This document shows positions 15,228 through 31,375 of a stretch of DNA of 64,000 nt, piece by piece. The notes below the pieces were generated by a model. That model saw only the letters and a program-made list of their open reading frames with translations, did no database searches and was not told the DNA's origin. Each line of letters opens with the position of its first letter. The stretch's first letter is position 1. Where the stretch lies: the IMG/VR virus record IMGVR_UViG_3300032250_000391, positions 32,103 to 96,102 of that record; one strand, written 5' to 3'. A program made the translations under genes and the position numbers. This stretch comes from a virus. Its lineage: Duplodnaviria > Caudoviricetes.

Positions 15228-15235
15228 ACGAGACT

Positions 15236-15266
15236 AAAAAAGTGGGCGCAAGAGAAGAAGCGCCCA
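15236..15266 (-). terminator. Rho-independent terminator just upstream of terS
   Basis: TGGGCGC-N10-GCGCCCA followed by CTTTTTT. Confidence 0.75.
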
Positions 15267-15314
15267 TATTGCACACTAGGAGGAGAAACTTCATCGTATA
15301 GATGAGGCTTTTCT

Positions 15315-15342
15315 ATTATATTTAAAACGCCTAAAAAGTCAA
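15315..15342 (-). promoter_or_regulatory. Sigma70-like promoter (putative late promoter)
   Basis: TTGACT-N16-TATAAT, overlapped by the palindrome at 15339-15356. Confidence 0.6.
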
Positions 15343-15502
15343 TCATTAATGACTTAACAATATTAACCATAAAACCTTTATTTCCGCTTGTTTTACTGAA
15401 TTTGGATTAAAATACAATTACTTGGGGTTTCCCTTTATATATAATAAATTTTTAAATAAATAATATAAATAAATTATTAGATATAACATGGAAATAATTG
15501 GG

Positions 15503-15826
15503 TTAAATGTCTAACTCAAGTTGCAAGTCATCATCGTAAAAGTCTTCCATTATAGAAGTTGGTGCAACTTTGTTACTTTCAAAGTGTTGAACGCCTAACG
15601 GTGTTAATCCAATTAGCACGCGGTTTCTGCCTCTTCTTTTTTCCATACCAAGCTTTATTGCCCACTCATGACGAATCATAGTGCGCAAAGTAAACTGAAA
15701 CGCTTGCTTGGTTGTTTTGTAATCTAGTCGTTCTAAAATTTGGTCAAGGTCAACTGAAGATTTATCTTCGTTTCCCAAACTTAATACTTTCATAACATAC
15801 AAATGCTTTTCTGATGGGTATTCCAT
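15503..15826 (-). CDS. Winged-helix DNA-binding protein
   Basis: MarR-like wing and IGLTPLG motif. Confidence 0.6.
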   Translation of the reverse strand: MEYPSEKHLYVMKVLSLGNEDKSSVDLDQILERLDYKTTKQAFQFTLRTMIRHEWAIKLGMEKRRGRNRVLIGLTPLGVQHFESNKVAPTSIMEDFYDDDLQLELDI

Positions 15827-15827
15827 A

Positions 15828-16706
15828 TTATGCTTTCATTCTTAAAGGCTCATTAACGCCTTGTTTATCAAACTCTAAAACTGGAATTCTTTCTGGAATC
15901 TTGCGACCGCAATCTGGGTTTATGTACACTCCATAAAGCGGGCAAGCAAAAATTAACTGTTGTAGATTTTTAAGTAAGGCACCAATCGGCATTTCATCAA
16001 CGCGCTTAGTGCCATTCAGTCTAGCGTTTCCGCTTTTCTCCATAGAAGAGTAGCGGTAGTAAAAGTCACGCAAACCCTGTACAACGTTTTCACGAACGTG
16101 ATTGGGCATTGCTTCAATTTCTTCCATTACCGCAACATAATCATTTGGATTGCTTACAATGTAGCGTGTAAACAACTCCACTCCTCTTTCGTAGTTCGCA
16201 GAGCGCTTAGGCTTTGTAAACCTAAAACCCGCCTTTTGAGCAAATGGGTTAAAGCGGCTCATTGAACTTTGAAACTCTATATACCGCCAACCGCTCATGC
16301 GACACATAATGTTTTGCATGCGATAAGCAATACCTACGCCGCGATACATGGTGTCTAACACTAAACGACTGTTGGTTCGCATGTTGGCGTTTACCCAGTC
16401 GGCTCGATGTTGATTCATCATTCGAGTATCGAGACCGCTTTGATTAGGTCGCAAATGTGCAAAAACTTCATTCCTGCCAGAACTAAGCATCTTGGATACT
16501 GTTAACATTCCAACGCCAATAGTCTGACCGCGCAATACACAACGATAAAACGCTGGGCCTACTGGAATTTTTTCAGCTTTATAGTGAAGCTCATGCAGTA
16601 AATTCCAGTCATCTTTTGTGCCTCGTTCAACATAAATTTCTTTAAGCAGTGAAAAGGCATGATTGGAAGGCACACTGCGGCGCTCAATAAAAATATCCTC
16701 AGTCAT
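15828..16706 (-). CDS. GNAT-fold (Mom-like) acyltransferase, putative DNA modification enzyme
   Basis: LHY motif, SRLVLDTMYRGVGIA acyl-CoA loop, MSRFNPFAQKAGF. Confidence 0.65.
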   Translation of the reverse strand: MTEDIFIERRSVPSNHAFSLLKEIYVERGTKDDWNLLHELHYKAEKIPVGPAFYRCVLRGQTIGVGMLTVSKMLSSGRNEVFAHLRPNQSGLDTRMMNQHRADWVNANMRTNSRLVLDTMYRGVGIAYRMQNIMCRMSGWRYIEFQSSMSRFNPFAQKAGFRFTKPKRSANYERGVELFTRYIVSNPNDYVAVMEEIEAMPNHVRENVVQGLRDFYYRYSSMEKSGNARLNGTKRVDEMPIGALLKNLQQLIFACPLYGVYINPDCGRKIPERIPVLEFDKQGVNEPLRMKA

Positions 16707-17106
16707 TATTGGTTTTGGATTGTTTTAAGTTGAGACTGTTGCGCCATTCTTTTTTGTCAAAATTACTTGCCGTTAAGAATGAATCTATTCTGTGTGTGCG
16801 CATATTTTTTTGGTATAACTTTTCAATATGATGGTCATGCACGTAAATGCTAAGTGCAATTCCAATTGCACCGCCAATTGCCGAGACAATTAGCACCAAA
16901 ATATTGCCATTGACCGCATATTTAACAAATACGAACTGCGCAATGCTAATTCCTACGCTAGTCATTGCGGCTGCAAAATATTTACTTTTATGTACGTGTT
17001 TGCTTTGTAAGCCAAGTAAAAAAACCACCACAAAGCTAGAAGTAAACATTGCTAAGTAATCAATTAAATCAAACATTGACTGTTTCCTTGTATTCTCCAT
17101 CTGCAA
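16699..17106 (-). CDS. Small membrane protein
   Basis: Three hydrophobic segments. Confidence 0.6.
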   Translation of the reverse strand: MQMENTRKQSMFDLIDYLAMFTSSFVVVFLLGLQSKHVHKSKYFAAAMTSVGISIAQFVFVKYAVNGNILVLIVSAIGGAIGIALSIYVHDHHIEKLYQKNMRTHRIDSFLTASNFDKKEWRNSLNLKQSKTNND

Positions 17107-17737
17107 GCACTTTAATTTTTAATTTTTCTCTAAAGCGCTTTTCGATGTATAAAGTTGGCGCCAAATCATCAATTAAATCTGTATGTGTCGTTGCGACAAG
17201 CAACGTAACGCCTAAAGACCTGGCGACTTTCTGAATACTGAATGAAATGGCGGCAGCAGATACTCGGTCTAAAATGGCCATAAATTCATCCGCCACCCAT
17301 ACCGTTGCGTTGGACTCAATAAGCTTGGCTAAACGAAAGCGGTATTTTTGCCCGTCTGATAACTCTGCTGGCTTTCTAACAAACAAATAAGCGTCATTTA
17401 AACCAGCAATGGATAAGTATTTCATGGCTTCGTTAAGGTCTTTGCCAATTTGGTCAATAAGCGGCTTATCTTCAAACTGAACATCGTCAATATTCATGAC
17501 ATTTAAACCACTAATTTTCATTTGATTAGCAAGTTCACGAAGTAGAACGGTTTTGCCCGCTCCAGATTGACCCGTAATGTAAACAACATCGCCATCAAGC
17601 ACTTCTAATTCAAGCTCGTTAAAAATAACAAACTCTTTATCATCAAGACCTAGCCCAAAAGCCTCTGCAATTTCTAATACTCTGGCGCTTCGCTCCACAC
17701 GCGTTTGAAACTTTTTATTAATTACGTATTTAGTCAT
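17069..17737 (-). CDS. Stand-alone ABC-family ATPase
   Basis: GQSGAGKT, signature LSDGQ, VADEF, TTH. Confidence 0.85.
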   Translation of the reverse strand: MTKYVINKKFQTRVERSARVLEIAEAFGLGLDDKEFVIFNELELEVLDGDVVYITGQSGAGKTVLLRELANQMKISGLNVMNIDDVQFEDKPLIDQIGKDLNEAMKYLSIAGLNDAYLFVRKPAELSDGQKYRFRLAKLIESNATVWVADEFMAILDRVSAAAISFSIQKVARSLGVTLLVATTHTDLIDDLAPTLYIEKRFREKLKIKVLADGEYKETVNV

Positions 17738-17744
17738 TCGTGAC

Positions 17745-18401
17745 TTACCAACTTACAGACAAAGATTCAGCAAAGCTAACTAACGCTTCTGCGCCTTTTT
17801 TGCCTGTGCTAGATTCAACTTCTGCCATAAAGCGCGTCAAAGTGCGCTGAGAAGAGCCTGGCACCGTCTTAAAGCCAAAAACTTTGTAAAGAGGTATATC
17901 TTTGCTGTCTACGGCTTCGGCAGTCTCTCTGCTCGATTCTGTGTGCTTCTCAAGCTCATTATCAAGGTCATCTACAAAGCCGGCTAAATCTATCTCGCCT
18001 AAATCAGCATCCATAAAGTCTAATTCTTTGGAATCAAAAATTCCTTTAAGGTCGTATTCGAGCGAGGCAAGTTCTTGTTGTAGCTTTTCAGTGTCAATAT
18101 CTGAGATTGCTACTCGATTGTCAGCCAGTCTGGCAGCCCTAACTGCTTCAGGCGATAAATCTGCTCTGACGACCACAGGGACGGTAGCAAGACCAAGCTT
18201 GATTGCCGCCAATCGTCTTCCATGACCCTTGATGACAACGCCGTCAGCGTCAACAACAATAGGCTGGTCAAAGCCAAATTCTTTGATGGACTTTGCAATC
18301 TTCTCAATTTGCACATTGTCGTGATTTTTCGCATTAAGTTCGTATGGTTTGACATCATCAATTTTCCAATCTAATACTTTTATAAGTGTTTCTCTTGCCA
18401 T
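17745..18401 (-). CDS. ParB/Srx-like protein
   Basis: KPYELNAK.H, FGFDQPIVVD, GHGRRLAA, RLADNR. Confidence 0.85.
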   Translation of the reverse strand: MARETLIKVLDWKIDDVKPYELNAKNHDNVQIEKIAKSIKEFGFDQPIVVDADGVVIKGHGRRLAAIKLGLATVPVVVRADLSPEAVRAARLADNRVAISDIDTEKLQQELASLEYDLKGIFDSKELDFMDADLGEIDLAGFVDDLDNELEKHTESSRETAEAVDSKDIPLYKVFGFKTVPGSSQRTLTRFMAEVESSTGKKGAEALVSFAESLSVSW

Positions 18402-18565
18402 TAAGCGACTCTCTTCAGTAAAAGAATTTTTTTAGAAAATAAAGCGCCTTCTGAGTAGTCATCGGCGGCGGGTTCAAATTGGTCTGCATTTTCGCAGAAC
18501 TCACATACGTCTTCGTCTTCGCCATTAAATTGGCAATAATCACATTCTTCAAATCTATCAGTCAT
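18401..18565 (-). CDS. 54-aa Cys-rich (CxxC...CxxC) protein, missing from the ORF track
   Basis: MTDRFEECDYCQFNGEDEDVCEFCENADQF...; overlaps both flanking ParB genes. Confidence 0.6.
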   Translation of the reverse strand: MTDRFEECDYCQFNGEDEDVCEFCENADQFEPAADDYSEGALFSKKILLLKRVA

Positions 18566-19199
18566 CGTTAGTCACCAAGTAAACAAGAGCATTTCCAGCA
18601 TTCATAAGAGAATCATCGTCCATAAAACCTTGCGTTTTCATAATTGACTCAATAACCGACTGGACAGCGGCGGCATCTTCCATCGGAACTTTAAAACGCA
18701 TAATTTGATGGGTTTGTACCTTTGAGCTTGTCGGCAATATAGGCAGTTCATCGGAATCCGGTAATTCGAGTTCATCGAGCGATATACTAGTGCTAGAGAA
18801 TATTGAATTTAAGTCGTCGTTCGAGTAAGGCATGTATGAAGAGATATCTTCAAACTCGCCAAGCTCTTTTAAAAGTTCAGCCAATTGCAAAGTGTCATCA
18901 ATGCCGTATCTGCCGTTATCAACTAAACTAATTTCTTTCGCCTTGTCGTCAGATATTTTGCCAAGATTTATAATGGGAATCTCTTTAAAGCCCAGTCTAA
19001 TTGACGACTCAACTCGGTGTTCGCCGCCTAGAATCTGTAGCGCACCATTTGCCAACTCTCGACAAATAATTGGTTTAAACATGCCAAACCGCTTAACTGA
19101 GTTGTCCAGCTTTGTTTGGTTTTCAGGGTCGACCATATTTGTATTCCAAGGATTCTTGGTTAATTTTTTAGGGTCGATGGCTAAGTTTTTGATTTCCAT
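18558..19199 (-). CDS. ParB/Srx-like protein
   Basis: NPWNTN, FGMFKPII, GGEHR motifs. Confidence 0.85.
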   Translation of the reverse strand: MEIKNLAIDPKKLTKNPWNTNMVDPENQTKLDNSVKRFGMFKPIICRELANGALQILGGEHRVESSIRLGFKEIPIINLGKISDDKAKEISLVDNGRYGIDDTLQLAELLKELGEFEDISSYMPYSNDDLNSIFSSTSISLDELELPDSDELPILPTSSKVQTHQIMRFKVPMEDAAAVQSVIESIMKTQGFMDDDSLMNAGNALVYLVTNDD

Positions 19200-19271
19200 T
19201 AGGTTCCATATTGTTAATAAGTCATTGGTGACTTATACTACTCCAAATATTTTATAGAGGCAAGAGCTGAA

Positions 19272-20783
19272 TTGACTAAAAATATAACAATTGCTAATAA
19301 CGCCGTTACAGCGAAAGTCATGGACAACGACAAAGAGGCAAAATTTCTGGTTTCGTCCGCGCTTTCTTACAAAGTTTCTGGCTCAGAACACATGGATATG
19401 TTTAAAACAGGCTCATGGGACGGTCGCTCTTCCTTTTTTGATTGGAAAACTGCCACATTTCCAGCAGGCTTTGTGTCGCTCGTTCATGCCGCACTTCAAA
19501 AAGGCGGTTACACGGTTAATCGAGTTAGAAATCCTTTGCCTGCTCCGCTTGGAAAAGAAGAGTTCTGGGAAATTGATGACTTCGGTCTAGACCCGATGTA
19601 TGACTACCAGCCAGAAGTGGTTAATAAACTTCTAAAGTACGGTCAAATGATTGCACAGGTAGCAACGGGAGGCGGAAAATCACGAATTGCACGTCTTGCT
19701 TACGCCCGCATTAGACGCCCTACGCTTTTTATCACCACTCGCGGTGTTTTAATGTATCAAATGAAAGAAGCCGTCGAGGGTTACGGTTTTAAATGCGGAG
19801 TTATTGGTGACGGTACGCTTAGTGTAAGCCCTGAGTTTAATGTGGCGATGGTTCAAACAATCATTGCTCACATTAAAGCGCCTGATAGTTATGACTCCGT
19901 AGAAAAGCAAGCCGCTCAGGCAAAGCGCAGTGCTCGTATGATTAATTTCTTAGAGAAAATTGAGTTTATCATTCTAGAAGAAGCTCACGAGTCTAGCGGT
20001 AATAGTTACTACGACATCTTGCGCTATTGCAAGAACGCAAACTACCGTTTAGCACTTACAGCAACGCCATTTATGAAAGACGACGAAGAAGCAAACATGC
20101 GTCTTATGGGTTGCTCAGGACCAATCGGTATTGAAGTTTCTGAAAAGTTACTTATTGACCGTGGCATTTTGGCAAAGCCGTATTTCAAAGTCGTCAAGCT
20201 TACTCAGAAGCCAACTAAGCTGTACAAATCAACTCCCTGGCAAAAAGCCTACACTGTTGGCATAGTTAATAACGAATTTCGCAACGCTCACATTGTAAAA
20301 GAAGTTCAGATAGCCGCAAAAGTAGGTTTAACAACGATGATTCTTGTTCAGCAAACCAAGCACGGCGTAATACTTAACGAGATGCTTAAAGAAAAAGGCG
20401 TCATGTCCGATTACATTCACGGCGAGCACGACCAGTCAGAACGTAAAGAAGCTTTGCGTAAATTAGGCTGCGGAGAACTTTCAGTATTAATTGGAACGTC
20501 GATTCTAGATGTAGGCGTAGATGTTCCAGCCGTAGGCGTTATTATTTTAGCTGGTGGTGGAAAAGCCGAAGTAGCGCTTCGTCAACGTATTGGTCGAGGA
20601 CTAAGAAGAAAGAAAAAAGGAAAAAATGTTGCCTTAATAATTGATTTCTACGACGAACATAATAGCCATCTAAAAGACCACGCTAAAAACCGCATTAATA
20701 TTATTAAAAACACGCCGGGCTTTGGCGAAAATATAATGGAACCTAGCTTCTGTTTTTATAGAGATTTACTTTTAAAGAGGTGA
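19272..20783 (+). CDS. Superfamily 2 (DEAH) helicase
   Basis: ATGGGKS, EEAH, LTATP, GVDVP, QRIGRGLR. Confidence 0.9.
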   Translation: MTKNITIANNAVTAKVMDNDKEAKFLVSSALSYKVSGSEHMDMFKTGSWDGRSSFFDWKTATFPAGFVSLVHAALQKGGYTVNRVRNPLPAPLGKEEFWEIDDFGLDPMYDYQPEVVNKLLKYGQMIAQVATGGGKSRIARLAYARIRRPTLFITTRGVLMYQMKEAVEGYGFKCGVIGDGTLSVSPEFNVAMVQTIIAHIKAPDSYDSVEKQAAQAKRSARMINFLEKIEFIILEEAHESSGNSYYDILRYCKNANYRLALTATPFMKDDEEANMRLMGCSGPIGIEVSEKLLIDRGILAKPYFKVVKLTQKPTKLYKSTPWQKAYTVGIVNNEFRNAHIVKEVQIAAKVGLTTMILVQQTKHGVILNEMLKEKGVMSDYIHGEHDQSERKEALRKLGCGELSVLIGTSILDVGVDVPAVGVIILAGGGKAEVALRQRIGRGLRRKKKGKNVALIIDFYDEHNSHLKDHAKNRINIIKNTPGFGENIMEPSFCFYRDLLLKR

Positions 20784-20811
20784 TAGAATAGTCACTAGTA
20801 ACTTACTTTTA

Positions 20812-21054
20812 TTGGAGACCGTAATGCCATTCTCAGAACAATTTATTCAAAACATGGTAATTGTTATAGTCATAGCAGCCATTGCAATATTAATGACTCA
20901 GCCTTTAGCATTGTTTGGCATTCTTTTGCTAGGTCATCTTCCTCAAATTGAATACGAAGACCAAGAAGACGCCAGTTTAGTAGGCGAGCTTTTGCCAGGC
21001 GAGTATGACGGCGACGCAGTAGGATTCACTGGTAACATAAAAGATACCAAGTAA
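20812..21054 (+). CDS. Small membrane protein
   Basis: Hydrophobic N-terminal half, acidic tail; start may be at 20824. Confidence 0.5.
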   Translation: METVMPFSEQFIQNMVIVIVIAAIAILMTQPLALFGILLLGHLPQIEYEDQEDASLVGELLPGEYDGDAVGFTGNIKDTK

Positions 21055-21137
21055 AAACAAGCAATATAAGTAAATATGAAAGTATAATAAGCGAGTAAGT
21101 ATAATTTATTCGCTTTTACTTTTTATAGGCACAACAC

Positions 21138-21440
21138 ATGGAAAAATTCACGCTATCAATGGCGTTCAATACGACTGAACCACTAGAACAGGTCAACGAA
21201 ATATCACGTATTCATAATTGCGCACGCACCGACACCGTTATGACGCTTTTAGCGATGTATGACGCAGACGCCTTCAGCAAACAACTCCCCAAGACGATAG
21301 AGAAAAGAAAGCAAGAGAAGAAAATACTCATAGAGGAATCAAAGCGTAAGCGCAGAGAAACTCAAGAGCTTGCCGCATTGCTAAACAAGAATCCAGAACT
21401 TCTAGAACGCTTAAGAAAGGAGCTTGCCAATGACGACTAG
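21138..21440 (+). CDS. Hypothetical protein
   Basis: ORF overlapping the next gene. Confidence 0.55.
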   Translation: MEKFTLSMAFNTTEPLEQVNEISRIHNCARTDTVMTLLAMYDADAFSKQLPKTIEKRKQEKKILIEESKRKRRETQELAALLNKNPELLERLRKELANDD

Positions 21441-21759
21441 AAGATTTCCAACAACACCAAGAGACTTCGTTCAATGGTGCGTAGATAACGGTCATAGAAA
21501 CGTACTAACAGGCAAAGTACCACACGATATTAGAAACATTAAATCCATTGCCAATAGATACGGCTATGTCTGGAAAGATGACTTATTAAATCTGCCCACA
21601 AATATTCGAAGCACAGCAATGGCTATCGAAGAGATATCAGGCAAAACAAGTGAAGTCCCTGAGAAAACAGAAATCAAACCTACAGAATTAAAAGTAGTAA
21701 AAAAAGAAAAAGAACAACTACCTCCCGCAGTTCGAAGCGAAAATTGGGGAAGCTGGTAA
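21424..21759 (+). CDS. Hypothetical protein
   Basis: Ends in WGSW, like ORFs 36696..37157 and 45016..45639. Confidence 0.55.
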   Translation: MPMTTRRFPTTPRDFVQWCVDNGHRNVLTGKVPHDIRNIKSIANRYGYVWKDDLLNLPTNIRSTAMAIEEISGKTSEVPEKTEIKPTELKVVKKEKEQLPPAVRSENWGSW

Positions 21760-21839
21760 CGGCTTTTTATTTATTCATTATGATAAGTCATTTGTGATGT
21801 ATCTAACTGGCTTACAAATTTTAAGGCGCTTTACATTAA

Positions 21840-22073
21840 ATGAGAAAATCTAGAACTACTATCAGAGGACCAAGAATGACCAAATTAGAAAAAATTGTGC
21901 AGTATCTACACATGCTTCCAAAGCCAGTAAGATACTTCTTTTACTTGCTGTATTCGTTTGCAGCCTTAACGCTTTTCATGGTGGCTCTACCATTCGTCAT
22001 CATCGGTATCTTTAGCGCCTATCTATACTGCTTTGTTGCTGACCAATTTGAATCAATGAATTTCCCAAAGTAA
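21840..22073 (+). CDS. Small membrane protein
   Basis: Long hydrophobic stretch. Confidence 0.45.
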   Translation: MRKSRTTIRGPRMTKLEKIVQYLHMLPKPVRYFFYLLYSFAALTLFMVALPFVIIGIFSAYLYCFVADQFESMNFPK

Positions 22074-22098
22074 CTCTATTGGGCTTTAAGGAATGTAA

Positions 22099-22344
22099 AT
22101 GACTAAAGACGAAGCGTTAAAGATGGCTATTGATTATCTTCATGGAAATTACGTCGCTCATAGCGTAAGAAAAGTATCTCAAGGAGCATTAGTAGAACCA
22201 ATCAACGAAAATGGTCACTCTAAAGACGAAGCATTAAAGCTTGCACTGAATTTATTAGAATCAATGAAGACCGGAGCAGAAACATTTAGAGAATCCAGTC
22301 TCTGTACAGTTTGTAGTGCCATAGAAGAAGCATTAGAGCAGTAA
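22099..22344 (+). CDS. Hypothetical protein with duplicated KDEALK motif
   Basis: AAGGA RBS; internal repeat. Confidence 0.5.
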   Translation: MTKDEALKMAIDYLHGNYVAHSVRKVSQGALVEPINENGHSKDEALKLALNLLESMKTGAETFRESSLCTVCSAIEEALEQ

Positions 22345-22561
22345 CATAGTTCTACATATAAGCGTTTATTGCATGTATCACTTTTTTTGGATTTAATTGC
22401 GTATATAGAATGTATATACCTACTCATGTGTGCATTGGTCACCTATATAAGCGTTTATTACCGCTAGGTTTCTGTGGCTGTATAAGGGTCACTTTATTTA
22501 GCTAGGAAATTAGGCGCCTACCCCACCCTGTGCGGTCGCCCCTCCCTAAGAGTGACCGCTT

Positions 22562-22594
22562 GCTAAACAGTATAAACTATTTATACTGTTTAGC
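22562..22594. terminator. Inverted repeat where the two transcription directions converge
   Basis: GCTAAACAGTATAAA-CTA-TTTATACTGTTTAGC, a 15-bp stem. Confidence 0.55.
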
Positions 22595-22609
22595 GATACT
22601 GCTTAAAAT

Positions 22610-23191
22610 TTAAGCAAAATGCACAATTTTAGCAAGACGGTCGCGCGTCGCGATATCTTTAAAAGCTTGTAATTTTGCTTTGTTGTCATAAGTGATTAAG
22701 TTAGCGTATTGTAGCATTTTGCGAGTGCTAGACGCTTGAGTGCTAGACGTCGAAGTCGCGATATGTAATTGATTTTTACGCAAGCTTAAGTCGCTATCAT
22801 TAAGCGCAATAGCTTTGCTCATACCTTTTTGTATTTGCTCATTAGTCGCGCTATCTTTAAGCAATAACATCGATGTGATGTAATTGCGCGTATATCTATC
22901 AAGTGAGTCGATATTTTGAGATAACGTTTTTAAAAGCTTGAAATACTTGATAATTGCTTTTTGAGCAAAATAGTTTGTATTATTGTCATCTGTGATTGCG
23001 ATGATTGACGCGATTGAATTAAAATCAATTTTTTCGTTATGCATAACAGTCGCAAGATGCACTGTAAATAATGATTGAGCTTGTTTTAATTCTTTAGTCA
23101 TATTATCGTTTTTAGATTGTGCGATGCGTGAATCTAAAGAGTTATTGATAGCGTTGAAAATTGAGTTAATAGCTGATTGTGTTTTAGTCAT
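22610..23191 (-). CDS. Putative winged-helix regulator in a GG/CC-depleted island
   Basis: 193 aa with no Pro, no Trp and one Gly; motif similarity to 35497..36273. Confidence 0.7.
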   Translation of the reverse strand: MTKTQSAINSIFNAINNSLDSRIAQSKNDNMTKELKQAQSLFTVHLATVMHNEKIDFNSIASIIAITDDNNTNYFAQKAIIKYFKLLKTLSQNIDSLDRYTRNYITSMLLLKDSATNEQIQKGMSKAIALNDSDLSLRKNQLHIATSTSSTQASSTRKMLQYANLITYDNKAKLQAFKDIATRDRLAKIVHFA

Positions 23192-23246
23192 TTTAAATCT
23201 ACCTTGTAATTAATTAATAAAAGTGTTGTTGTGTACAACAGTTATA

Positions 23247-23276
23247 ACTATACGCTCATTTAAAAAAATGTAAATA
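23247..23276 (-). promoter_or_regulatory. Sigma70-like promoter for 22610..23191
   Basis: TTTACA-N16-TATAGT with AT-rich upstream DNA; no GCC box. Confidence 0.5.
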
Positions 23277-23350
23277 CTTTTAAGCATAAAAACACTAAAA
23301 AAAATAAAAATAAATTGCTTGACATGGTTTAAATTCTATGCGGCAAAATA

Positions 23351-23440
23351 CGCTTAGGCAGTGCGGATGAGGAGTGTCCGCGTTTAGGCGTTGGATGAGG
23401 ACGATTCGCGTTTAGGCACTCAAATGAGAATCGTCCGCAT
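23351..23440 (+). repeat. Three degenerate ~27-bp tandem repeats
   Basis: CGC(GT)TTAGGC...ATGAG(G/A)A units. Confidence 0.6.
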
Positions 23441-23489
23441 CGGCGGTAGGCATCAGCTGCCTACAAAAGCCTAGGCGGCTTTCAAGGAC

Positions 23490-23672
23490 GCTACCCGTAC
23501 CTATAGGTCACCAGCTACCCTCACCTGTAGGTCACCAGCTGCCCATACATCCTTGGCAGTAGGAATAGATTGCTACCCATACGTCATTACACACCCATAC
23601 ACCAAGGACTGGCTGGCTACCCGCACCTATGCCCATCTATCCATAAAACAGGCATCACATAGCTACCCGTAC
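23490..23672 (+). repeat. GCTACCC(A/G)TAC repeat cluster, first three at 24-bp period
   Basis: Copies at 23490, 23514, 23538, ~23572, ~23616, ~23662. Confidence 0.7.
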
Positions 23673-23781
23673 ACTCTACGGCTGGTTTTAGTGAGTAAGT
23701 GATACAAAGACCTAGGAAAAGTAAATGAACGCGTTCTAGGGCTATTACTGCAAGCCCTAGAGTATTAAATAACAGCCCTAC

Positions 23782-24027
23782 TTAAGCGAAGTGTAAGTCT
23801 GCGTAAGACCAATCGTCATAGCGTTGGCGATGTACTTTCTTGCTATTGAGGAATTTATCTGTATCGCATGCCCAATCATAGTCGTCCTCTTCAACATCAA
23901 GAATTGGCACTGCTTTAGCAATTTTAGGTTCTACTGCAAGAAAATCTACGTAGATAACGCTAGGCGGCTCTGCTAGATACTCCACTTCAACACCGTAGTT
24001 ATTGGACTCGTTTAACTCTTGATTCAT
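23782..24027 (-). CDS. Hypothetical acidic protein
   Basis: AGGAG RBS; GCC-box promoter upstream. Confidence 0.55.
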   Translation of the reverse strand: MNQELNESNNYGVEVEYLAEPPSVIYVDFLAVEPKIAKAVPILDVEEDDYDWACDTDKFLNSKKVHRQRYDDWSYADLHFA

Positions 24028-24259
24028 GATACTGCTCCTAGTAAGTGATTAAATATGTAGTGATTTGCTACAACTTCATTGTAAGCACTCAGTTTAGGCG
24101 CGTGGATGGCACTACTTAGGCAGAGTAAAAGCGATAGATAAAGGCTTAGGCGTTTAAGAATTGCGGATTGATTCCATGGCCTGCGGATGACATTAGATAG
24201 CCTTGGCCGAGAGCCTGTGGCCTAAAAGGGAGAACCCTTTGGCCTGATACTGAAATAGC

Positions 24260-24409
24260 CTAGTTACTAATGCAGGCTCTAGTGATGATTGCCGTGCCTA
24301 GAATTACCATCATGAGCCAAAGCCAGCCTACGCCATTCTCTAGCAACTGTGAAACGCCAATGGTTAGAATAATGCCGCCTAGAACGGTTAAGGAATTGTT
24401 GTAGTTCAT
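24260..24409 (-). CDS. 49-aa membrane peptide
   Basis: MNYNNSLTVLGGIILTIGVSQLLENGVGWLWLMMVILGTAIITRACISN; AGGAG RBS. Confidence 0.55.
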   Translation of the reverse strand: MNYNNSLTVLGGIILTIGVSQLLENGVGWLWLMMVILGTAIITRACISN

Positions 24410-24501
24410 AGTATTACTCCTAAATAAACACCCAAGAAAATTGTTAAGTAAACGCCAATCATTAGTAAGGCGGCGCCATCGGTAAAATATCTGTTTCTCA
24501 T
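24406..24501 (-). CDS. 31-aa membrane peptide
   Basis: MRNRYFTDGAALLMIGVYLTIFLGVYLGVIL; AGGAGG RBS; ATGA overlap with the next gene. Confidence 0.55.
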   Translation of the reverse strand: MRNRYFTDGAALLMIGVYLTIFLGVYLGVIL

Positions 24502-24745
24502 TTTTCCTCCTAAGTCAGTAGTGACTTATCAATTAAAATAAAACTTTGGACATCACACGCTCATGAAATTTTCTTTCCCTACGTGTTCTGATTGCATGCT
24601 CAATAAGAGAGGCAATGCCAAGAAATCCGCATAAGCCTGTAATAAATACTAAAATTAAAATTAAGTTTTCCATCTTGTTTCTCCTTTTGTTTGTTTAACC
24701 ACAATTTCATTATATAGAGCGATGTCAGGCACGAGAACAGGCAGT

Positions 24746-24868
24746 TTAATTAAAAAGCAAGTAGCCTACGAAGTACAAAACAATCAAGGTAGGCAAAGAT
24801 ACGACGATAACGTTAATTAGGGTGAAAATGGCGGTAAATAAATTGCCAACTTTGTCAAAAATATTCAA
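24746..24868 (-). CDS. 40-aa membrane peptide (TTG start)
   Basis: MNIFDKVGNLFTAIFTLINVIVVSLPTLIVLYFVGYLLFN; AGGAG RBS. Confidence 0.45.
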   Translation of the reverse strand: MNIFDKVGNLFTAIFTLINVIVVSLPTLIVLYFVGYLLFN

Positions 24869-25128
24869 TACATACTCCTATAGTCGTTTAACTGATGCTT
24901 CATTATATCGACAAAATTCAGGGAATTATCTTGGCAAAAAACACTGCCAAATGCCTAGGCAACTTTTAAGGCATTTTCATTCTTACTTTCCTATAGGCAA
25001 CACCTTCAATTCCTAAGCCTGGCTTCATTCTTAAAAAACGCCTAATCTCTCACATAGGAGCTACCCATACAATTTTGTCACCACTCAGCCTAATATTTAT
25101 TTCATGGAAGCTAGCCGTACATCATTGA

Positions 25129-25296
25129 CTAGCCATACACGTCCATCTCCGTCTCCTCTTCCTCTTCAATTTCCTCAAGATAGTCAGGCTTATACTTGTC
25201 TTTGCGAATGTAAGTCTCCTTAAGCCGTAAGTCTTCCTCTACTCGCATACGGTATTTAGGCGTTCTTAAATCTTTGTGTATAAGTGACTGCTTCAT
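25129..25296 (-). CDS. ArfA-like small protein, probably leaderless
   Basis: MKQSLIHKDLRTPKYRMRVEEDLRLKETYIRKDKYKPDYLEEIEEEEETEMDVYG; TATACT 6 nt before ATG, no SD. Confidence 0.55.
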   Translation of the reverse strand: MKQSLIHKDLRTPKYRMRVEEDLRLKETYIRKDKYKPDYLEEIEEEEETEMDVYG

Positions 25297-25897
25297 GTGT
25301 TTAGTATAGAAAAGAAAGTTAGGGCAAGCTACAGGCGGAATAATGGCTAATGAATATATTGAGTTAATTGTTTTTAAACAAATAGAGGCTTCTGGGAGAG
25401 GAAACCTAAAACTGAAAGATAAGCCCCCCCAAACCCCCCATGCCTATAGACACGTTGACCGAAGGGTTCAAGGTATGCCATCTAGCGTTCTATTAGTATC
25501 AATCCAAAAGCCTAGGCTTCTGTACAAGTCAAACCAACAAAACTGAAAGACAAGCCCCCAGAAAGAAAGAGAAAACTCCCTAGGCATTACATTTGGCTCT
25601 AATCAGGGCTTACACGTTGCCTGTGGCTCAATGGTTTAATGCTTCGGAAACCAAATCATGTTATTAGTATAAATATGGACTTTAGGTAAGTCAATAGTGA
25701 CTTATCAATTACCTAAAAATAGTTCACAACTGGTGCCATGGCAATGGCCTGCGATTACTGTCGCAGCCTAAGCCTGGTGGCCTGGCATTGGAATCTGAAA
25801 CTGGCTGTAGGTGGCCTGTAGTGTGTAAGTGAAAATCTAATTAGCCTAACGATTGAAGAGAGGTTCACTCCTCACCCCCAATCACTTACATATCTGC

Positions 25898-26281
25898 CTA
25901 ACCTTCTTCCTCTGTCCACTCTTTATATCTTAAGGCATCTATCTTGTTCACCATCCACATCAGTTCTTCTCTGAGGCTTTCAAACCGTTCTTTATTTTCC
26001 ATGTCAATTATTGGTCTTTCATTACTGCCTGGAAACTTATAAAGCTCAATCATATCTAGGAGAATATTCTTTAAAGTAAACTTTGCGCCTACAATAACTT
26101 GTTTGTATTCCTCATTATCAAAATGGCTGATGGCTTCTAACACTTCGTCCTCAGCCCATAGGCTTGAAATTGTGTAGCTAAATATGTTTTTGCCATCTAC
26201 AAAGTCCCTTTCTATCAGAACTCCTTCATCCTCAATGTAACGATAGGTGCCATTTTTAATTGTCTTTTTTCCACTTGCCAT
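25898..26281 (-). CDS. Hypothetical protein
   Basis: ORF with RBS in the early region. Confidence 0.6.
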   Translation of the reverse strand: MASGKKTIKNGTYRYIEDEGVLIERDFVDGKNIFSYTISSLWAEDEVLEAISHFDNEEYKQVIVGAKFTLKNILLDMIELYKFPGSNERPIIDMENKERFESLREELMWMVNKIDALRYKEWTEEEG

Positions 26282-26331
26282 TTATTGCCCTCTTTAGCCT
26301 ACGGTTTATTTATTGCCGTTGTTCTTTACTT

Positions 26332-26526
26332 TTAGTTTAGCCTTACGCCTTTTATTAAACTCAGCTCGTCATTCCTGTACTCAAGACGGCTTTCAGGATA
26401 TTCCCATTCCGAGTCCAAATCATCAATGACGATATTCCTACCGTGATTATAGACTTCAACTACTTTGCCTTTGATGTTTTGGTCTATTACTTCGACGATA
26501 TCGCCTAAGCTGAAAATATTGCTCAT
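26332..26526 (-). CDS. Small SH3/KOW-like protein
   Basis: FSLGDIVEV...GKVVEV pattern; AAGGAG RBS. Confidence 0.55.
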   Translation of the reverse strand: MSNIFSLGDIVEVIDQNIKGKVVEVYNHGRNIVIDDLDSEWEYPESRLEYRNDELSLIKGVRLN

Positions 26527-26600
26527 GCCATCTCCTTAATTAGTTTTGTTTCGATAGTTTATTATCACAGTTAATTTCAGGCGAGAGAACCGGCACTTAA

Positions 26601-26927
26601 CTACTGCCTAGCTACCGTTTCAAAGGCTTTATTGATGTCTTTTAAATTATCGTAAGTCCAAGCATCAATAAAATCTACGCCTTCGGGCAGTTCATTATAG
26701 GAAAAGTCCTCATCCGAAACGCAAATGCGCTCACAGGCGACGCCTTCGACATAATTGTTATACTCGTCCATTGAGCGAAAGACGTTGTAATAGCCATGCT
26801 TGTCCAAATAGACAAAGGCTATGGAATCCTTGTCCTCTACTGCCCTAGCAATTAAGAATTGTCCTACGCCGCAGTCCTCGCAATAAAGCCACTCGACTTT
26901 ATCGTCAAAGTCCTTGTATGTGTTCAT
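26601..26927 (-). CDS. Hypothetical protein
   Basis: ATGA-coupled ORF. Confidence 0.6.
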   Translation of the reverse strand: MNTYKDFDDKVEWLYCEDCGVGQFLIARAVEDKDSIAFVYLDKHGYYNVFRSMDEYNNYVEGVACERICVSDEDFSYNELPEGVDFIDAWTYDNLKDINKAFETVARQ

Positions 26928-27250
26928 GCTATCTCCTTTGGAATATCAACTTCGTGTCCTAACTTATTTGCGACGTAGCACCGCATGGCGGCTATTAGTG
27001 GACTTGAGCCACAGAAAAAATCAGGCGTGTTTATGCTATTTCCAAAGGCAGCACACCATTCTTGACCTTTCCATATCTGCATGCCTTCATGCTCAATAAT
27101 TGGACCGCCTTGTGCCCAATCTTCTGTAGGCACATAGTAATCTCCGTTTTCTAAAATAATTACTTGGTCTATTTCTACATTTAGGCTTTGACACTTTGCC
27201 ACAGCCCAATCAAGCGCCATGCCTGTTAGTTCTGATGTTTCAATTTTCAT
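26924..27250 (-). CDS. NinX/DUF2591-family phage protein
   Basis: ELTGMALDWAVA, PTEDWAQGGPIIE, PLIAAMRCYV. Confidence 0.75.
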   Translation of the reverse strand: MKIETSELTGMALDWAVAKCQSLNVEIDQVIILENGDYYVPTEDWAQGGPIIEHEGMQIWKGQEWCAAFGNSINTPDFFCGSSPLIAAMRCYVANKLGHEVDIPKEIA

Positions 27251-27251
27251 T

Positions 27252-27581
27252 TTACTTCTCCTTTAGATAATCTTGCATTGCCTCAAAATAATTGTTCGCA
27301 TCTTGCTCTAGGCTAAAAGTTAGCTTGTAGTCCAAAGCCTCGTACTGCACTTCACCGCTTGGCATTTCCTCATACTGAATTGCGATGTCTTGGCTGCTTT
27401 CCCAATACGGTGTGGCATAAACCACTTCCATGAACTCCTCTTCTGGCATTGGTCTGCACCAAAAGATTGAGCCTGTGTGTTCTTCGCTATCAATAGTCCA
27501 ACCATGTAGCGATTTTCTTTGCCTTAGTAACTCTTTGAGTAGGCTATCTATGTATACTTCCAAGTCCTCTTGTGTGTTCAT
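27252..27581 (-). CDS. Hypothetical protein
   Basis: AAGGAG RBS; first gene after a GCC-box promoter. Confidence 0.6.
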   Translation of the reverse strand: MNTQEDLEVYIDSLLKELLRQRKSLHGWTIDSEEHTGSIFWCRPMPEEEFMEVVYATPYWESSQDIAIQYEEMPSGEVQYEALDYKLTFSLEQDANNYFEAMQDYLKEK

Positions 27582-28036
27582 TTTCTCTCCTTTACTTGAT
27601 GCTTTTATTATCTCAAACAGACTTAGGGCGGTACACAGGCACTTGCTAGTTGCCTGACTTGATTTAAAGCGTTTTAAGCGTTTATTTTTTTAGCGTATAC
27701 CGTCATATAGACTAACTTAGGTGGACGAGCTGTAGCGTTAGGTAGAGCGGTTCCTAGAGCATACTTATCGCTTGATGCATACGCAAAAAAGTGCTTGCCC
27801 TAAGTTGTATAATGCCTATGAAACGCAAACACAATTTAGGCTTCGCAAGTCATTGATTTTATTGGACAAATAAAAAGGTAGGCAAAAAAATGCCTGAATA
27901 GACTCGGAGATGGCTAATTCAGGCTTATTTCGGGATTAAGGACTATAGCGTTTTACTGCTATATCTCATTATATACAGGGTTTTATTTATATTGCTAGGC
28001 AATGTGAATTTACGCTCCTAGGCAATGTATAGACGG

Positions 28037-28062
28037 AAAAAAGGCGGGGTCACAAGTCCCGC
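28037..28062 (-). terminator. Rho-independent terminator
   Basis: GGCGGG-N9-CCCGCC-TTTTTT. Confidence 0.7.
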
Positions 28063-28163
28063 CCTACTGCTTTTCCAACGGTAATCACTCCGTTATTTAC
28101 TTACAAGGTGGCAATTATACGATACCGCCAAAACGTTTTATTATTGTATTCCAAAAAGTGTTT

Positions 28164-28343
28164 TTATTGCAAGCCACATGCCTCTAAAAATGTGCTTGTT
28201 TGGAATGCGTAGTTGTCCTGTCTAAGTGCATACGCCACCTGCAAGACTGCATTTTTGTAGGCTTCGAGTTGTTGCTCGTTTGTCGGTCTTGCCTGCTTAA
28301 CTTTTTCGGCTATTGCAATGTAGGTTTTTCTTGAAGCTGCCAT
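28164..28343 (-). CDS. Hypothetical protein
   Basis: Probable start MAASRK after AAGGAG. Confidence 0.55.
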   Translation of the reverse strand: MAASRKTYIAIAEKVKQARPTNEQQLEAYKNAVLQVAYALRQDNYAFQTSTFLEACGLQ

Positions 28344-28353
28344 AGTATTCTCC

Positions 28354-28647
28354 TTAGTAGTCGATTTCAGGAATGTTAAAACCTTTGGTCGCGGCATACG
28401 CTTGAAGCTCGCCTACGACACCGTTTAGATAGCGAGCCTTCGCTATTATTTCACCGCGAGGCAATTCGCCATCGCAACTCAGATTTTCAGGGCTAAGTTT
28501 GGAACTCAAAGAGTTTGCCAAGCGTTTGCAGTCCTTCTCGCTCAAGTCGTAGGGATTGTAAGTAGCGTCTTTGCCAAAGATAGCGTCCCAATCGTTTTGT
28601 TGTTCGCAGTATTGGATTAAATTTCTCATGGTTTTCTCCTTATGCAA
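28354..28647 (-). CDS. Hypothetical protein
   Basis: LSPENLSCDGE motif seen in phage early proteins. Confidence 0.6.
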   Translation of the reverse strand: MHKEKTMRNLIQYCEQQNDWDAIFGKDATYNPYDLSEKDCKRLANSLSSKLSPENLSCDGELPRGEIIAKARYLNGVVGELQAYAATKGFNIPEIDY

Positions 28648-28963
28648 TTACTGGCTTGAAGCCAAAGTTGTCGACGATGTAAAAGCCTTCGTTTTCGTCA
28701 TTTTTGTTTAGCCAAATTAAATCTCCGACCGAAGTAGAGCGATAATTTTTCCTACCGCCCATCACTTCGACGCCTTCGTTTTCTGACCAATGCTCGTCAA
28801 TGGAATTAGTCAAATCAAAGGCGTCAGCTAAAATTCTGTCCTTTAGCAAGTCACGATTATTAAGAAAGGCAACTGGCTCGTAATCGTTTAAGTCGACACG
28901 CGTTGGCGTCTTGCCAAGATAACCTTCAAATTTTTTCTTTTGCATAACTATGGCTGAGTACAT
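28640..28963 (-). CDS. YodL-like protein
   Basis: RSTSVGD...YIVDNFGF. Confidence 0.5.
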   Translation of the reverse strand: MYSAIVMQKKKFEGYLGKTPTRVDLNDYEPVAFLNNRDLLKDRILADAFDLTNSIDEHWSENEGVEVMGGRKNYRSTSVGDLIWLNKNDENEGFYIVDNFGFKPVIA

Positions 28964-29037
28964 TTCCTTCTCCTTTATTAGTGTTGCTCTGTCGATTTAG
29001 TTATTATGACGAAGTAAGTCAGGCGTGACTAATGGCA

Positions 29038-29289
29038 CTAAGTAAATAAAGCAAGTTGCCAATCAGAGTCTTCTTTGATAGGGTCAAAGACAATTTCGAA
29101 GTCTTCGTTTGGCGGTCCAATTTCCATTGTAAAAAAGTCCTGCGCCCAATTCTGAGGCGTATAGTCGCGGTAAGCCCATAGAAGCGTGTCATAGAAATAG
29201 CCTCTATCCTGCTCGCATGAATACATCACGGCATCTAGGACTAACTTTTTAGCCTCAGAAACGGTTATTTTGGTTTTAGGTCTACTCAT
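29038..29289 (-). CDS. Hypothetical protein
   Basis: Coupled ORF. Confidence 0.55.
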   Translation of the reverse strand: MSRPKTKITVSEAKKLVLDAVMYSCEQDRGYFYDTLLWAYRDYTPQNWAQDFFTMEIGPPNEDFEIVFDPIKEDSDWQLALFT

Positions 29290-29561
29290 GAGAGTGCCTC
29301 CTTTATTCTTTCTAAATTCACGCAGGAATAATTCATCGGATACTTTTCTTCAAATTTAGGGACGACGAGCATAGCCCATATATACGCCTGCTCCGTATCT
29401 GTCAGTTCCGAAGGCTCGTATACGTTAGTCATGTCCATTTTCATATTTAAGCCCGCCTCTGACGAGAGAATTGGCGCCGCCCAAAGATAGTCCTCATACG
29501 CGAAGTAGGCGTTACCGTCGTTATGATTGTAAAAAGCCTTAACAAAAGTTTTGTCAGTCAT
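29286..29561 (-). CDS. Hypothetical protein
   Basis: AGGAG RBS. Confidence 0.55.
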   Translation of the reverse strand: MTDKTFVKAFYNHNDGNAYFAYEDYLWAAPILSSEAGLNMKMDMTNVYEPSELTDTEQAYIWAMLVVPKFEEKYPMNYSCVNLERIKEALS

Positions 29562-29569
29562 GATTTCTC

Positions 29570-29839
29570 CTAAAATGAGTAAGGGGCGTAATTGCGAATT
29601 GGCGAGTCTTTGGAAAGCGATATATGCTCCTTAAACTCGTACTCAATTCCTCTGTCTTTGAGAGCGCCAATAAATAAAGAGGCGTCGCAGTCTTCCTCTA
29701 AGTAGACGTAATCGCCTCTGGCGTAAGAGTAGTAGGAAATCTTGTCATCAATTCCAAACTGCTCCAACATACGTTTCTCGACCTTGAGCCAACCATGTCC
29801 AGGGTCCGAATAAAAATCTAATTGCATTGTCATCTCCAC
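29570..29839 (-). CDS. Conserved phage/plasmid hypothetical protein
   Basis: SDPGHGWLKV...YLEEDCD motif. Confidence 0.6.
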   Translation of the reverse strand: MEMTMQLDFYSDPGHGWLKVEKRMLEQFGIDDKISYYSYARGDYVYLEEDCDASLFIGALKDRGIEYEFKEHISLSKDSPIRNYAPYSF

Positions 29840-29908
29840 TCTCCTTGTGATTATTTGCTACATTTATAATTGTAGATATCCGATACAGGCGTGTAAATCA
29901 CGAATGAC

Positions 29909-30187
29909 TTACTGCCTAAGAGATGCCAATTTCACAAATCTAGGGCGCATATAATAGTTTTGCGCCTCGATGCAATTGCGGATACTGGCGGCAAACTGAT
30001 GCCTTTTGCCATCGGCATTAGCCAGCTCCATCATTGTGACTGCAATAAAGATGGCAACAAGAGGCTTTTTGTTGTGCAGATGCTCAAGGACTGCGCCTCG
30101 ATTACCGTTAAGCCAACTCTCATAAAGTTCGGATATTTCCTCTTCCTCAATTTCAAACTCTGCAACTTTTTCTTTAGGCGATTTCAT
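29909..30187 (-). CDS. Hypothetical protein
   Basis: GGAGG RBS. Confidence 0.5.
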   Translation of the reverse strand: MKSPKEKVAEFEIEEEEISELYESWLNGNRGAVLEHLHNKKPLVAIFIAVTMMELANADGKRHQFAASIRNCIEAQNYYMRPRFVKLASLRQ

Positions 30188-30653
30188 GTAATTCCTCCAT
30201 CCATTCCGGTATGTTTCGATATTTCCAATGTGCGATATGTGCTTTGTGTAGCCTGTAATAAGTACGATAGGCTGTCACGGCGTCAGGATGCTTGCACTCG
30301 TCAGGCATCGCTTGTGCAAACGGTGTCATGCCAATGGGTATAGCTTTGGGTGGCGGACTCCAGATGCTTTCGATGACTGACTGACAGGCATGTCGCTTGT
30401 CGTAGCGGTAGGAATATTCTGCACACAGTTCCAAGCCCAACTCGACTAGCCACTGGTAATTTTCCTTGCTTTGCCTAGCCCAAACTGTGCAGGGATGATT
30501 TGGATAGGCTGGCTTGTATTGAGAATAACCGCCAAGCAGATGATGGGCTGTGGACAGCATTTGTGCAGTTTCCAACGGCATTTTGACTATATGCTTGTCC
30601 AAGTGAAGCCTTGCGGCCTCAATCGGTTCGTAATCTAGGACAAAAATGTTCAT
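30174..30653 (-). CDS. Pyrimidine-dimer DNA glycosylase (DenV-like family)
   Basis: MNIFVLD...DKHIVKMPLETAQMLST, NHPCTVW, AQAMPD. Confidence 0.75.
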   Translation of the reverse strand: MNIFVLDYEPIEAARLHLDKHIVKMPLETAQMLSTAHHLLGGYSQYKPAYPNHPCTVWARQSKENYQWLVELGLELCAEYSYRYDKRHACQSVIESIWSPPPKAIPIGMTPFAQAMPDECKHPDAVTAYRTYYRLHKAHIAHWKYRNIPEWMEELHEIA

Positions 30654-30901: not shown

Positions 30902-30977
30902 TTTGTTTCTCCTTGTAATTGATTAACCACAATTACATTTTAAAGATTAGATTCAGGCGCGTCGGGTGGCAGTTTCG

Positions 30978-31217: not shown

Positions 31218-31375
31218 AATTTACTCCTTTATATACATACGAACTGTGTCGCCAAAACCTAGCAACTTAAGGGCAAAAGCATCTGCTTCTGCCTGTGAGT
31301 CAAACTCTTCCTCACGCCACTTGCGAAGCTCTGTCCATGAATTTTTGGAATACTCAACTACATAATAAACTTTGG

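Follow-up and report, generated by a model that had tools for sequence, protein, structure and literature searches.

A transcription unit of a temperate phage purged of the three-base word GGV/BCC on both strands

Several described systems turn on nucleic acid words of only two or three bases. DpdA-type 7-deazaguanine modification is placed at very short motifs (such as GA and GGC in phage CAjan), mRNAs that lack ACA resist MazF, and words of three bases with a single base barred are characteristic of enzymes, as with Nt.CviPII, which reads CCD. Other systems concern how, and in what order, genes are read: the first-step-transfer DNA of T5 and the left end of T7 hold a few genes that are read first by the unaided host polymerase, and both T4 MotA at middle promoters and PhoB at pho boxes 10 bp upstream of the -10 element replace the -35 element. 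We know of no description of a word-free composition for the early regions of T5 or T7. Here we describe a 0.8-kb transcription unit, built around a gene for a 193-residue protein, in the uncultured virus record IMGVR_UViG_3300032250_000391 (96,102 bp, 97% complete); the stretch analyzed is the right-hand 64 kb of that record (64,000 nucleotides, herein referred to as the window). Selection holds both strands of this unit free of the word GGV (GG followed by any base but T) and of BCC, its reverse complement.

The nearest precedent is the avoidance of short motifs in phage genomes (restriction sites and the CC protospacer adjacent motif [PAM]), with which the unit shares a word made scarce through selection and on both strands alike. 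Whereas known avoidance of this kind is mild and genome-wide, here it is complete, is confined to one unit and reaches into the amino acid composition of the encoded protein, and the sparing of ACC/GGT does not fit a CC PAM. The literature yielded genome-wide PAM depletion only (reported for the CC PAM in Pseudomonas phages targeted by type I-F CRISPR-Cas; PMC12174588) and nothing like a locally word-free gene unit. New here are the exact word, phages that naturally pair a purged copy with an unpurged one, and a case without genes of the deazaguanine pathway.

A unit without GGV or BCC

Between positions 22557 and 23326 the window holds only three GG/CC dinucleotides (at 22639, 22824 and 23202), whereas about 38 are expected from base composition (Poisson P(X ≤ 3) = 2.5e-13, or 4.8e-11 once scaled to the genome-wide observed/expected ratio of 0.85). 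All three are GGT/ACC, and GCC, GGC, GGA, TCC, GGG, CCC, TGG and CCA are all absent. In 500-bp intervals the observed/expected ratio falls to 0.03–0.09 in this desert, against a genome mean of 0.85 (standard deviation 0.15) and a next lowest value of 0.45, making the desert the sole such trough across the 96,102-bp genome. A preliminary description of this DNA had counted three GG/CC in 22559–23325, all in GGT/ACC and with neither GCC nor GGC; an exact recount agrees, the mononucleotide expectation for these coordinates being 38.3, and the depletion is significant after correction for composition. Its argument that generic restriction avoidance is not the cause is borne out too, as the palindromes TCGCGA, GATATC, AAGCTT, GACGTC and ATCGAT all occur in the desert. 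The avoided motif it had proposed is GG/CC-based, as it had said, but does not extend to every GG/CC: the word narrows to GGV/BCC.

Measured by this word, the empty run extends on either strand from 22544 to 23342 (798 bp), with GG/CC occurring in it only as the three GGT/ACC. The whole genome carries 5,114 GGV/BCC sites at a mean spacing of 18.8 bp, and its second-longest empty run is 163 bp. The borders of the 798-bp run coincide with those of the transcription unit, which lies on the minus strand and has a GC content below that of its flanks, both in the window and in most relatives. The purge spans a sigma70-like promoter (TTTACA-16-TATAGT, 23274–23247; a match to the consensus alone, at 10 of 12 positions) set in an AT-rich leader of 21% GC, a ribosome-binding site of the AGGT type (CAAGGTAGAT, 23197–23206) in which the only GG precedes T, the 193-residue gene itself (22610–23191), and a perfect 15-bp inverted repeat with a 3-nt loop (22562–22594). 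This hairpin lies directly past the stop codon, has no clear U-tract and may serve as a terminator, or as an insulator that separates the unit from the convergent helicase operon.

The encoded protein contains no proline, no tryptophan and a single glycine, as had been noted before, where 5.9, 2.1 and 13.3, respectively, would be expected at the average composition of the phage. Given this protein and the codon usage of the phage, its gene should hold 19.5 ± 4.1 GG/CC, yet the actual number is two, and a count that low did not arise once in 20,000 simulations. Shuffling the gene's own synonymous codons gives 6.4 GG/CC against the two seen (p = 0.011), and tests restricted to codon junctions are significant in the window gene and in most purged relatives. 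C-ending codons are common in the gene (ATC 12, AAC 8, AGC 6, GAC 5 and CGC 4), yet ACC, GCC and TCC do not occur, and AGG and CGG are likewise absent despite many G-ending codons. The noncoding leader, the ribosome-binding site and the hairpin are purged in the same way. Because synonymous sites, codon junctions and noncoding flanks are all purged, the purge works on DNA, through selection, and not via the protein.

These tests bear directly on the notion that the composition is a by-product without meaning at the DNA level, arising from a helical protein that needs no glycine, proline or tryptophan or from an AT-rich import. The whole protein family is indeed poor in these three residues and the unit is AT-rich, but neither property touches synonymous choices, codon junctions or the noncoding leader, ribosome-binding site and hairpin; moreover, normally written second copies of the gene (described below) carry 13 and 8 glycines, and throughout the phage group the trait keeps its place in the genome. 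We regard a by-product as scarcely credible. Avoidance of particular tRNAs or amino acids was also considered, and is rejected on the purged codon junctions and noncoding DNA.

The bases that stand in place of GG/CC are equally informative. GC and CG are raised in the desert (48 and 35 seen, against 18.7 expected for each), whereas CT, TC, AG and GA are at or under expectation, and a family-wide table gives the same picture. Were the unit eroded by local mutation pressure, for example by a CC-specific cytosine deaminase or similar damage acting on exposed or highly transcribed DNA, one could point to its lower GC content relative to the flanks and to the uracil-DNA glycosylase domain (residues 970–1099) fused to the C-terminus of the DnaE-type polymerase III alpha subunit of this phage (53221–56643, minus strand). 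Such erosion is nevertheless very improbable, since GG/CC has been exchanged for GC/CG and not for CT, TC, AG or GA, both strands are affected equally, the borders match the transcription unit and the protein is under purifying selection. Even jointly, mutation pressure and the absence of any meaning at the DNA level are highly unlikely to account for the unit. Deaminase erosion was set aside as a candidate on the same exchange to GC/CG and on strand symmetry. Avoidance of ultraviolet (UV) or oxidative damage was rejected, with 113 TT present in the unit and the tolerance of GGT left unexplained.

Related phages and paired copies

A subfamily alignment (A3) led to 17 IMG/VR loci, several of them from complete genomes of 108–118 kb or from a 93%-complete one of 102 kb. 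Gene order is constant among them (a block of small genes, the family gene, then the convergent helicase operon), and in most of them GG/CC drops sharply across the gene and the DNA on either side of it. Every purged copy has far fewer GG/CC than its protein and local codon usage predict (p < 0.0005), so that the expectation of depletion in orthologs holds, and the purged phages range from 41% to 67% GC. The longest GGV-free run measures 1561 bp in L013, 923 bp in L012, 732 bp in L002, 627 bp in L004 and 578 bp in L011, against mean spacings of 19.5, 10.9, 18.5, 19.6 and 12.0 bp, respectively. In some relatives the empty run takes in a neighboring small gene as well, one for 129 residues in L013, one for 111 residues in L002, and genes for small membrane peptides in L011, L014 and L015.

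The relatives also define which context is spared. GGT accounts for 60% of the GG that remain in the related genes but for 24% of those in the flanks (p = 7e-31), and GGV-free runs of 0.9–1.6 kb yet hold 11–25 GGT/ACC. Relative to the flanks, gene usage is 0.11 for GCC/GGC, 0.17 for GGA/TCC, 0.18 for CCA/TGG and 0.29 for CCC/GGG (0.11–0.40 over all CC/GG trinucleotides other than ACC/GGT), whereas ACC/GGT stands at 0.78. On the sense strand of 12 related genes, GGT makes up 69 of the 111 remaining GG and ACC 67 of the 114 remaining CC, and the avoided word is equally purged on both strands. Ribosome-binding sites in the relatives read AGGT or GAGGT instead of GGAG, and sigma70-like sites (of the TTGnnn-16/17-TAnnnT type; consensus matches alone) lie upstream of most purged copies.

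Strand symmetry separates the unit from the MazF case, to which it is otherwise akin in that a gene would survive a reader of short words by having no such word. MazF acts on RNA and on one strand; here the sense strand has lost GG and CC to the same degree, which indicates that duplex DNA, or either DNA strand, is read. An RNA-level reader (a RegB- or MazF-like nuclease, or CsrA) is unlikely on the same ground.

The spared context and the spread of the trait also bear on whether the unit evades a host defence that reads GG/CC, either frequent-cutting or nicking restriction or CRISPR with a CC or NGG PAM, the unit then encoding a factor that must survive or be expressed first. Phage genomes do respond to such pressure, as the CC-PAM depletion cited above attests, and the purge fits a defence acting on double-stranded DNA in being symmetric and in differing in strength among lineages. 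Against this, ACC/GGT is hardly depleted despite harboring a complete CC/GG PAM, the unit does not avoid other restriction-type palindromes, a single protected gene cannot save a genome with more than five thousand GGV/BCC sites, and persistence of the trait in phages of such different GC content implies very different hosts. Evasion of a host defence is therefore quite unlikely, and, as a separate candidate, avoidance of a CRISPR CC or NGG PAM is ruled out by the sparing of ACC/GGT.

Two of the relatives, L007 and L008, carry two copies of the gene each (59% and 49% identical, respectively) with the same recognition helix. The copy of L007 at the position of the window gene (9029–9622) is purged, with 9 GG/CC against 40 expected; its counterpart in L008 (7901–8479) has 31 against 41.7 expected, and GGV-free runs of 324 and 304 bp span 8018–8694, over most of that gene. 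The upstream copies, which sit behind phage-type CCTATAAGG arrays, are written normally: that of L007 has 75 GG/CC against 78 expected, and the normal copies of L007 and L008 contain the 13 and 8 glycines mentioned above, indicating that the fold tolerates glycine. Pairs in which one copy is purged and the other normal tie the constraint to the position and role of the unit and not to the protein fold. That the purge is demanded by the product's own specificity was likewise rejected, since the unpurged copies share the recognition helix. A general need of host-read or lysogenic genes is ruled out by the CI-like HTH_3 gene (GG/CC ratio 0.99, ribosome-binding site GGAGAGG) and the integrase gene (ratio 0.82) of the window genome, which are written normally.

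As a side observation, short hydrophobic peptides (28–66 residues) are encoded directly downstream of the regulator, in the GG/CC-poor zone, in L011 (6634–6720), L014 (6652–6783) and L015 (6479–6679); the window has none.

A possible reader of GGV

We hypothesize, tentatively and as a possibility that we would not call probable, that some phage-specified activity reads GGV and that the unit is its blind spot, so that a host-read starter copy of the regulator is left untouched; a fair share of the probability we assign to explanations beyond those weighed here. Such an activity would read GGV on double-stranded DNA and act on the remaining DNA of infected cells, and an enzyme that modifies bases, marks DNA or nicks it would be likelier than a protein that coats it. 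The stretch is an autonomous transcription unit, with a promoter of the host sigma70 type, an AGGT site, the 193-residue gene and a hairpin, and a starter copy of the regulator without the target word could always be expressed by unaided host RNA polymerase. We infer that a phage-encoded reader may exist and that the unit may be read first. Retention of the purge across phages of 41–67% GC argues for a phage-borne reader rather than a host-specific one; a three-base word with one excluded base, symmetric on the duplex, is more in keeping with the specificity of an enzyme than with that of a regulator; and the copy pairs, together with the conserved sigma70-like promoters, suggest a starter copy that is readable when other DNA is not. 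The likeness to the leading-end regions of T5 and T7 lies in the sigma70-type promoter, itself a consensus match; early expression would be a further likeness, as would a location at a DNA end.

The closest enzymatic analogue is DpdA-type modification, in that an enzyme reading two or three bases would explain the purge of a three-base word. This phage differs in its gene content. DpdA/TGT (PF01702) had no match in the window genome or in five 100%-complete relatives, although all control genomes matched; QueC (PF06508) and FolE (PF01227) had none in the window genome (QueD and QueE were not searched), nor had the C5, N6/N4 and Dam methyltransferase domains (PF00145, PF01555 and PF02086). If DNA modification exists here, the gene content suggests that it would be of a kind other than 7-deazaguanine.

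The preliminary description had named a ParB/ABC/GNAT block as the candidate modifier. This operon, on the terminase side (15503–19199, minus strand), encodes two ParB-like proteins, a stand-alone ABC-type ATPase, a holin-like small membrane protein (PHROG 7045) and a 292-residue protein. The block does co-occur with the gene, as had been supposed, in 10 of 10 relatives; it fails to discriminate between purged and unpurged phages, and the GNAT assignment is unconfirmed. The ParB-like proteins match PHROG 498, which carries a methyltransferase annotation, solely in its ParB-like part. The 292-residue protein, 45–65% identical in all 10 relatives tested whether or not their first-found copy is purged, has no match in Pfam or NCBIfam; its PHROG (886) is annotated as an ABC ATP-binding subunit, and Atlas features lean to GNAT.

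Several points weigh against a phage-specified reader. The searches for DpdA/TGT, QueC, FolE and methyltransferases found no reader of GGV, and a ParB/ABC/292-residue block present in all relatives has no power to discriminate through co-occurrence. Early and middle genes full of GGV also need to be expressed from the same DNA, for which a reading in which this unit alone escapes does not account. The preliminary description had taken the gene to be immediate-early and the motif to be modified or protein-bound in the virion, and both stand as suppositions. The strength of the purge varies, with L010, L014, L015 and L016 only about half purged, and L017 (a 23%-complete fragment) and L018 (a distant member) are unpurged.

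A complete and conserved purge of a three-base word, at the cost of three amino acids, would be the footprint of a powerful sequence reader, and the footprint would give its specificity: GG with T barred at the third base, on duplex DNA. The unit supplies a concrete gene, a promoter and natural controls in the form of normal second copies and partly relaxed lineages. If the reader is an enzyme, it may be a new short-motif DNA tool, and the word-free rule could be useful for genes that must work in infected cells. It is conceivable, though doubtful, that unrelated groups of tailed phages use an as yet undescribed activity to mark or attack every duplex DNA in the infected cell at a word of two or three bases (here GGV/BCC), while keeping a word-free starter cassette that alone is always readable by naive host polymerase. 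If true, this would amount to a new principle of phage gene control and of self/non-self marking, working in the present group without any known modification pathway.

The regulator, its promoters and the surrounding genome

A profile search of 1.84 billion representatives returned 52 relatives of the 193-residue protein, which share an LDxYT motif and an invariant STxSTQxSSTR helix (STSSTQASSTRKML in the window protein). Close homologs show a mean column identity of 82%, a clear sign of purifying selection. The family overall is poor in glycine, proline and tryptophan, and several members have none in 182–263 residues; the proteins of the three closest homologs (68–80% identity, including UFOVP26_57) are free of all three. 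An AlphaFold model built on the family alignment (predicted local distance difference test score 96.5) has a helical N-terminal half and one winged helix (residues 95–193), in which the invariant helix is modeled as the recognition helix. The best structural match of residues 95–193 is RosR (Z 9.0; 2.3 Å over 79 residues), followed by AF1382 and ORC1/Cdc6 winged-helix domains (Z 8.1–8.5) and by MarR-family regulators and linker-histone globular domains (Z 7.9–8.0); scores of this size point to likeness at the level of the fold only. Several family members bear Lys/Ala/Pro-rich N-terminal tails that resemble those of histone H1. No family in Pfam or NCBIfam matches the protein, Rep families included, two PHROGs of unknown function match it weakly, and searches of the PDB gave no sequence-profile match at E ≤ 1 and no Foldseek match at E ≤ 0.001. 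The model and alignment are consistent with a conserved winged-helix regulator of this phage group, with predicted DNA binding.

Upstream of the unit lies a 590-bp noncoding region, and beyond it a different promoter grammar prevails. Neighboring leftward units lack a -35 element; their promoters place a (C)GCCTRA box at a distance of exactly 10 nt upstream from a TATAAT-like -10 element (examples on the minus strand at 24709, 24902, 29869, 30937 and 40689). On the minus strand of 24078–61270 there are 25 matches to this pattern against 15.1 ± 3.7 expected, an analysis of offsets agrees, and relatives contain this GCCTA core in abundance, in the form GCCTAGGA. The sigma70-like promoter of the unit, TTTACA-16-TATAGT, is thus unlike those of its neighbors, as had been described previously. 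A dense TAGGC/GCCTA array, the core of the same box, occupies 23352–23480, with a 25-nt direct repeat at 23365–23417 and a 20-nt inverted repeat at 23394–23441. Because the box core and the recognition helix are both conserved, the TAGGC array adjoins the gene and the gene itself has a plain host-type promoter, the 193-residue protein may be the factor that binds GCCTRA boxes in place of a -35 element.

This arrangement recalls MotA and PhoB: the neighboring promoters have a box 10 nt upstream of -10 and no -35, and the purged gene encodes a predicted DNA-binding protein from a plain sigma70 promoter. Unlike the case of MotA itself, no homology in sequence or fold was seen, the winged helix resembling MarR, ArsR and ORC-type domains at the fold level only; MotA is not among the structural matches listed, an absence that does not exclude a likeness to it. 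In a comparison with iteron-binding Rep initiators (RepA, RepE and Pi), repeat arrays flank the gene here, one winged helix is modeled beside the helical N-terminal half where Rep proteins have two in tandem, and no Rep family matches.

The box vocabulary supplies a further rival, namely that the unit is kept free of the phage's own BCC/GGV-built words, which its winged-helix product or polymerase directed by the phage sigma factor could bind, as a form of regulatory insulation that would prevent internal or antisense starts, roadblocks and self-silencing. Much is consistent with this. The words of the group (GCCTRA boxes, TAGGC arrays, CCTATAAGG and arrays of TCTCCTAGGAGA) are all built on BCC/GGV, dense arrays of them bracket the unit in the window and in relatives, GCC/GGC, the core of the box, is the most depleted trinucleotide, the box keeps a fixed distance of 10 nt from -10, and its GCCTA core and the recognition helix are both conserved in the group. 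The phage also encodes a sigma factor of its own (57174–57851, minus strand; Sigma70_r2, with ECF- and SigK-like matches under the cut-off), which lies between the DnaE gene and a CbbQ/CobT-like pair of AAA and VWA genes; some family members have histone-H1-like tails, and the fold also resembles linker-histone globular domains. Avoiding words of 6–9 bp, however, does not require the removal of every GGV, nor the loss of glycine, proline and tryptophan; TCC, CCA and CCC are purged though they lie outside the box of the window; a frequent array word, TATAAGGTT, contains the tolerated GGT; and L007 and L008 each have a normally written copy that specifies the same recognition helix yet shows no purge. 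We consider regulatory insulation rather unlikely, and less likely than the preferred reading of a phage-specified reader of GGV.

On its 3′ side the unit is faced by a border element (22477–22560, plus strand) that consists of GGCTGTATAAGGG, a GG/CC-rich stretch (the C-rich tract at 22521–22546) and CCTAAGAGTGACCG. The element is kept across the phage group (alignment A4: the window, L011 6690–6815 on the minus strand, L010, L012, L013, L014, L005, L006, L007 and L008), and in relatives a promoter-like GGCTGTATAAGGGG is followed by GGAACGAGGAAGG and next by a hairpin formed around CTAAGACTTCGG, behind which comes a T-run. The element could encode a small RNA; alternatively, it could insulate and terminate the convergent helicase operon. 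Rfam gave no match in this region of the window or in eight related loci. Within the 590-bp region on the other side of the unit, six copies of GCTACCCGTAC are spaced 24–46 bp apart (23490–23672, plus strand), an array that may serve as a replication origin of the iteron type or as a set of operators. Relatives carry tandem CCCTATAAGGTT arrays (3–6 copies about 22–34 bp apart) ahead of the small-gene block, and GTCTCCTATAAGAC arrays with the palindrome TCTCCTAGGAGA directly upstream of the purged unit. These word arrays lie at L011 4200–4330, L012 180–340, L008 5650–5760 and L010 4560–4630, and also at L011 5620–5740, L012 1820–1910 and L008 7680–7735. The window genome has five TATAAGG altogether.

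Several similarity searches gave no match: neither a megablast of window positions 15000–35000 nor a tblastn with window proteins P0001, P0036 and P0006 matched the phage collection, viral contigs had no match to the 193-residue protein, alignment A1, P0005 or P0036, and metagenome and genome contigs had none to alignment A1. The gene content is that of a large, temperate phage of the siphovirus type. Structural and packaging genes include those for a tape-measure protein and the large terminase; those for replication and nucleotide metabolism encode DnaE, ribonucleotide reductase, ThyX, RecA, a gp32-like protein, SbcCD-like proteins, DnaB, a DnaG-like primase and ligase. An integrase gene adjoins a tRNA-Cys gene, and the CI-like HTH_3 gene lies beside the integrase gene. 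The unit closes a long leftward block and faces the rightward helicase operon (19272–22344) head-on. The record (G000) is classed as linear and without end repeats, and in relatives that have end repeats the distance from the gene to the end of the record varies. The phage also encodes a T4 DenV-like pyrimidine-dimer DNA glycosylase (30174–30653, minus strand), which suggests that UV repair matters to it.

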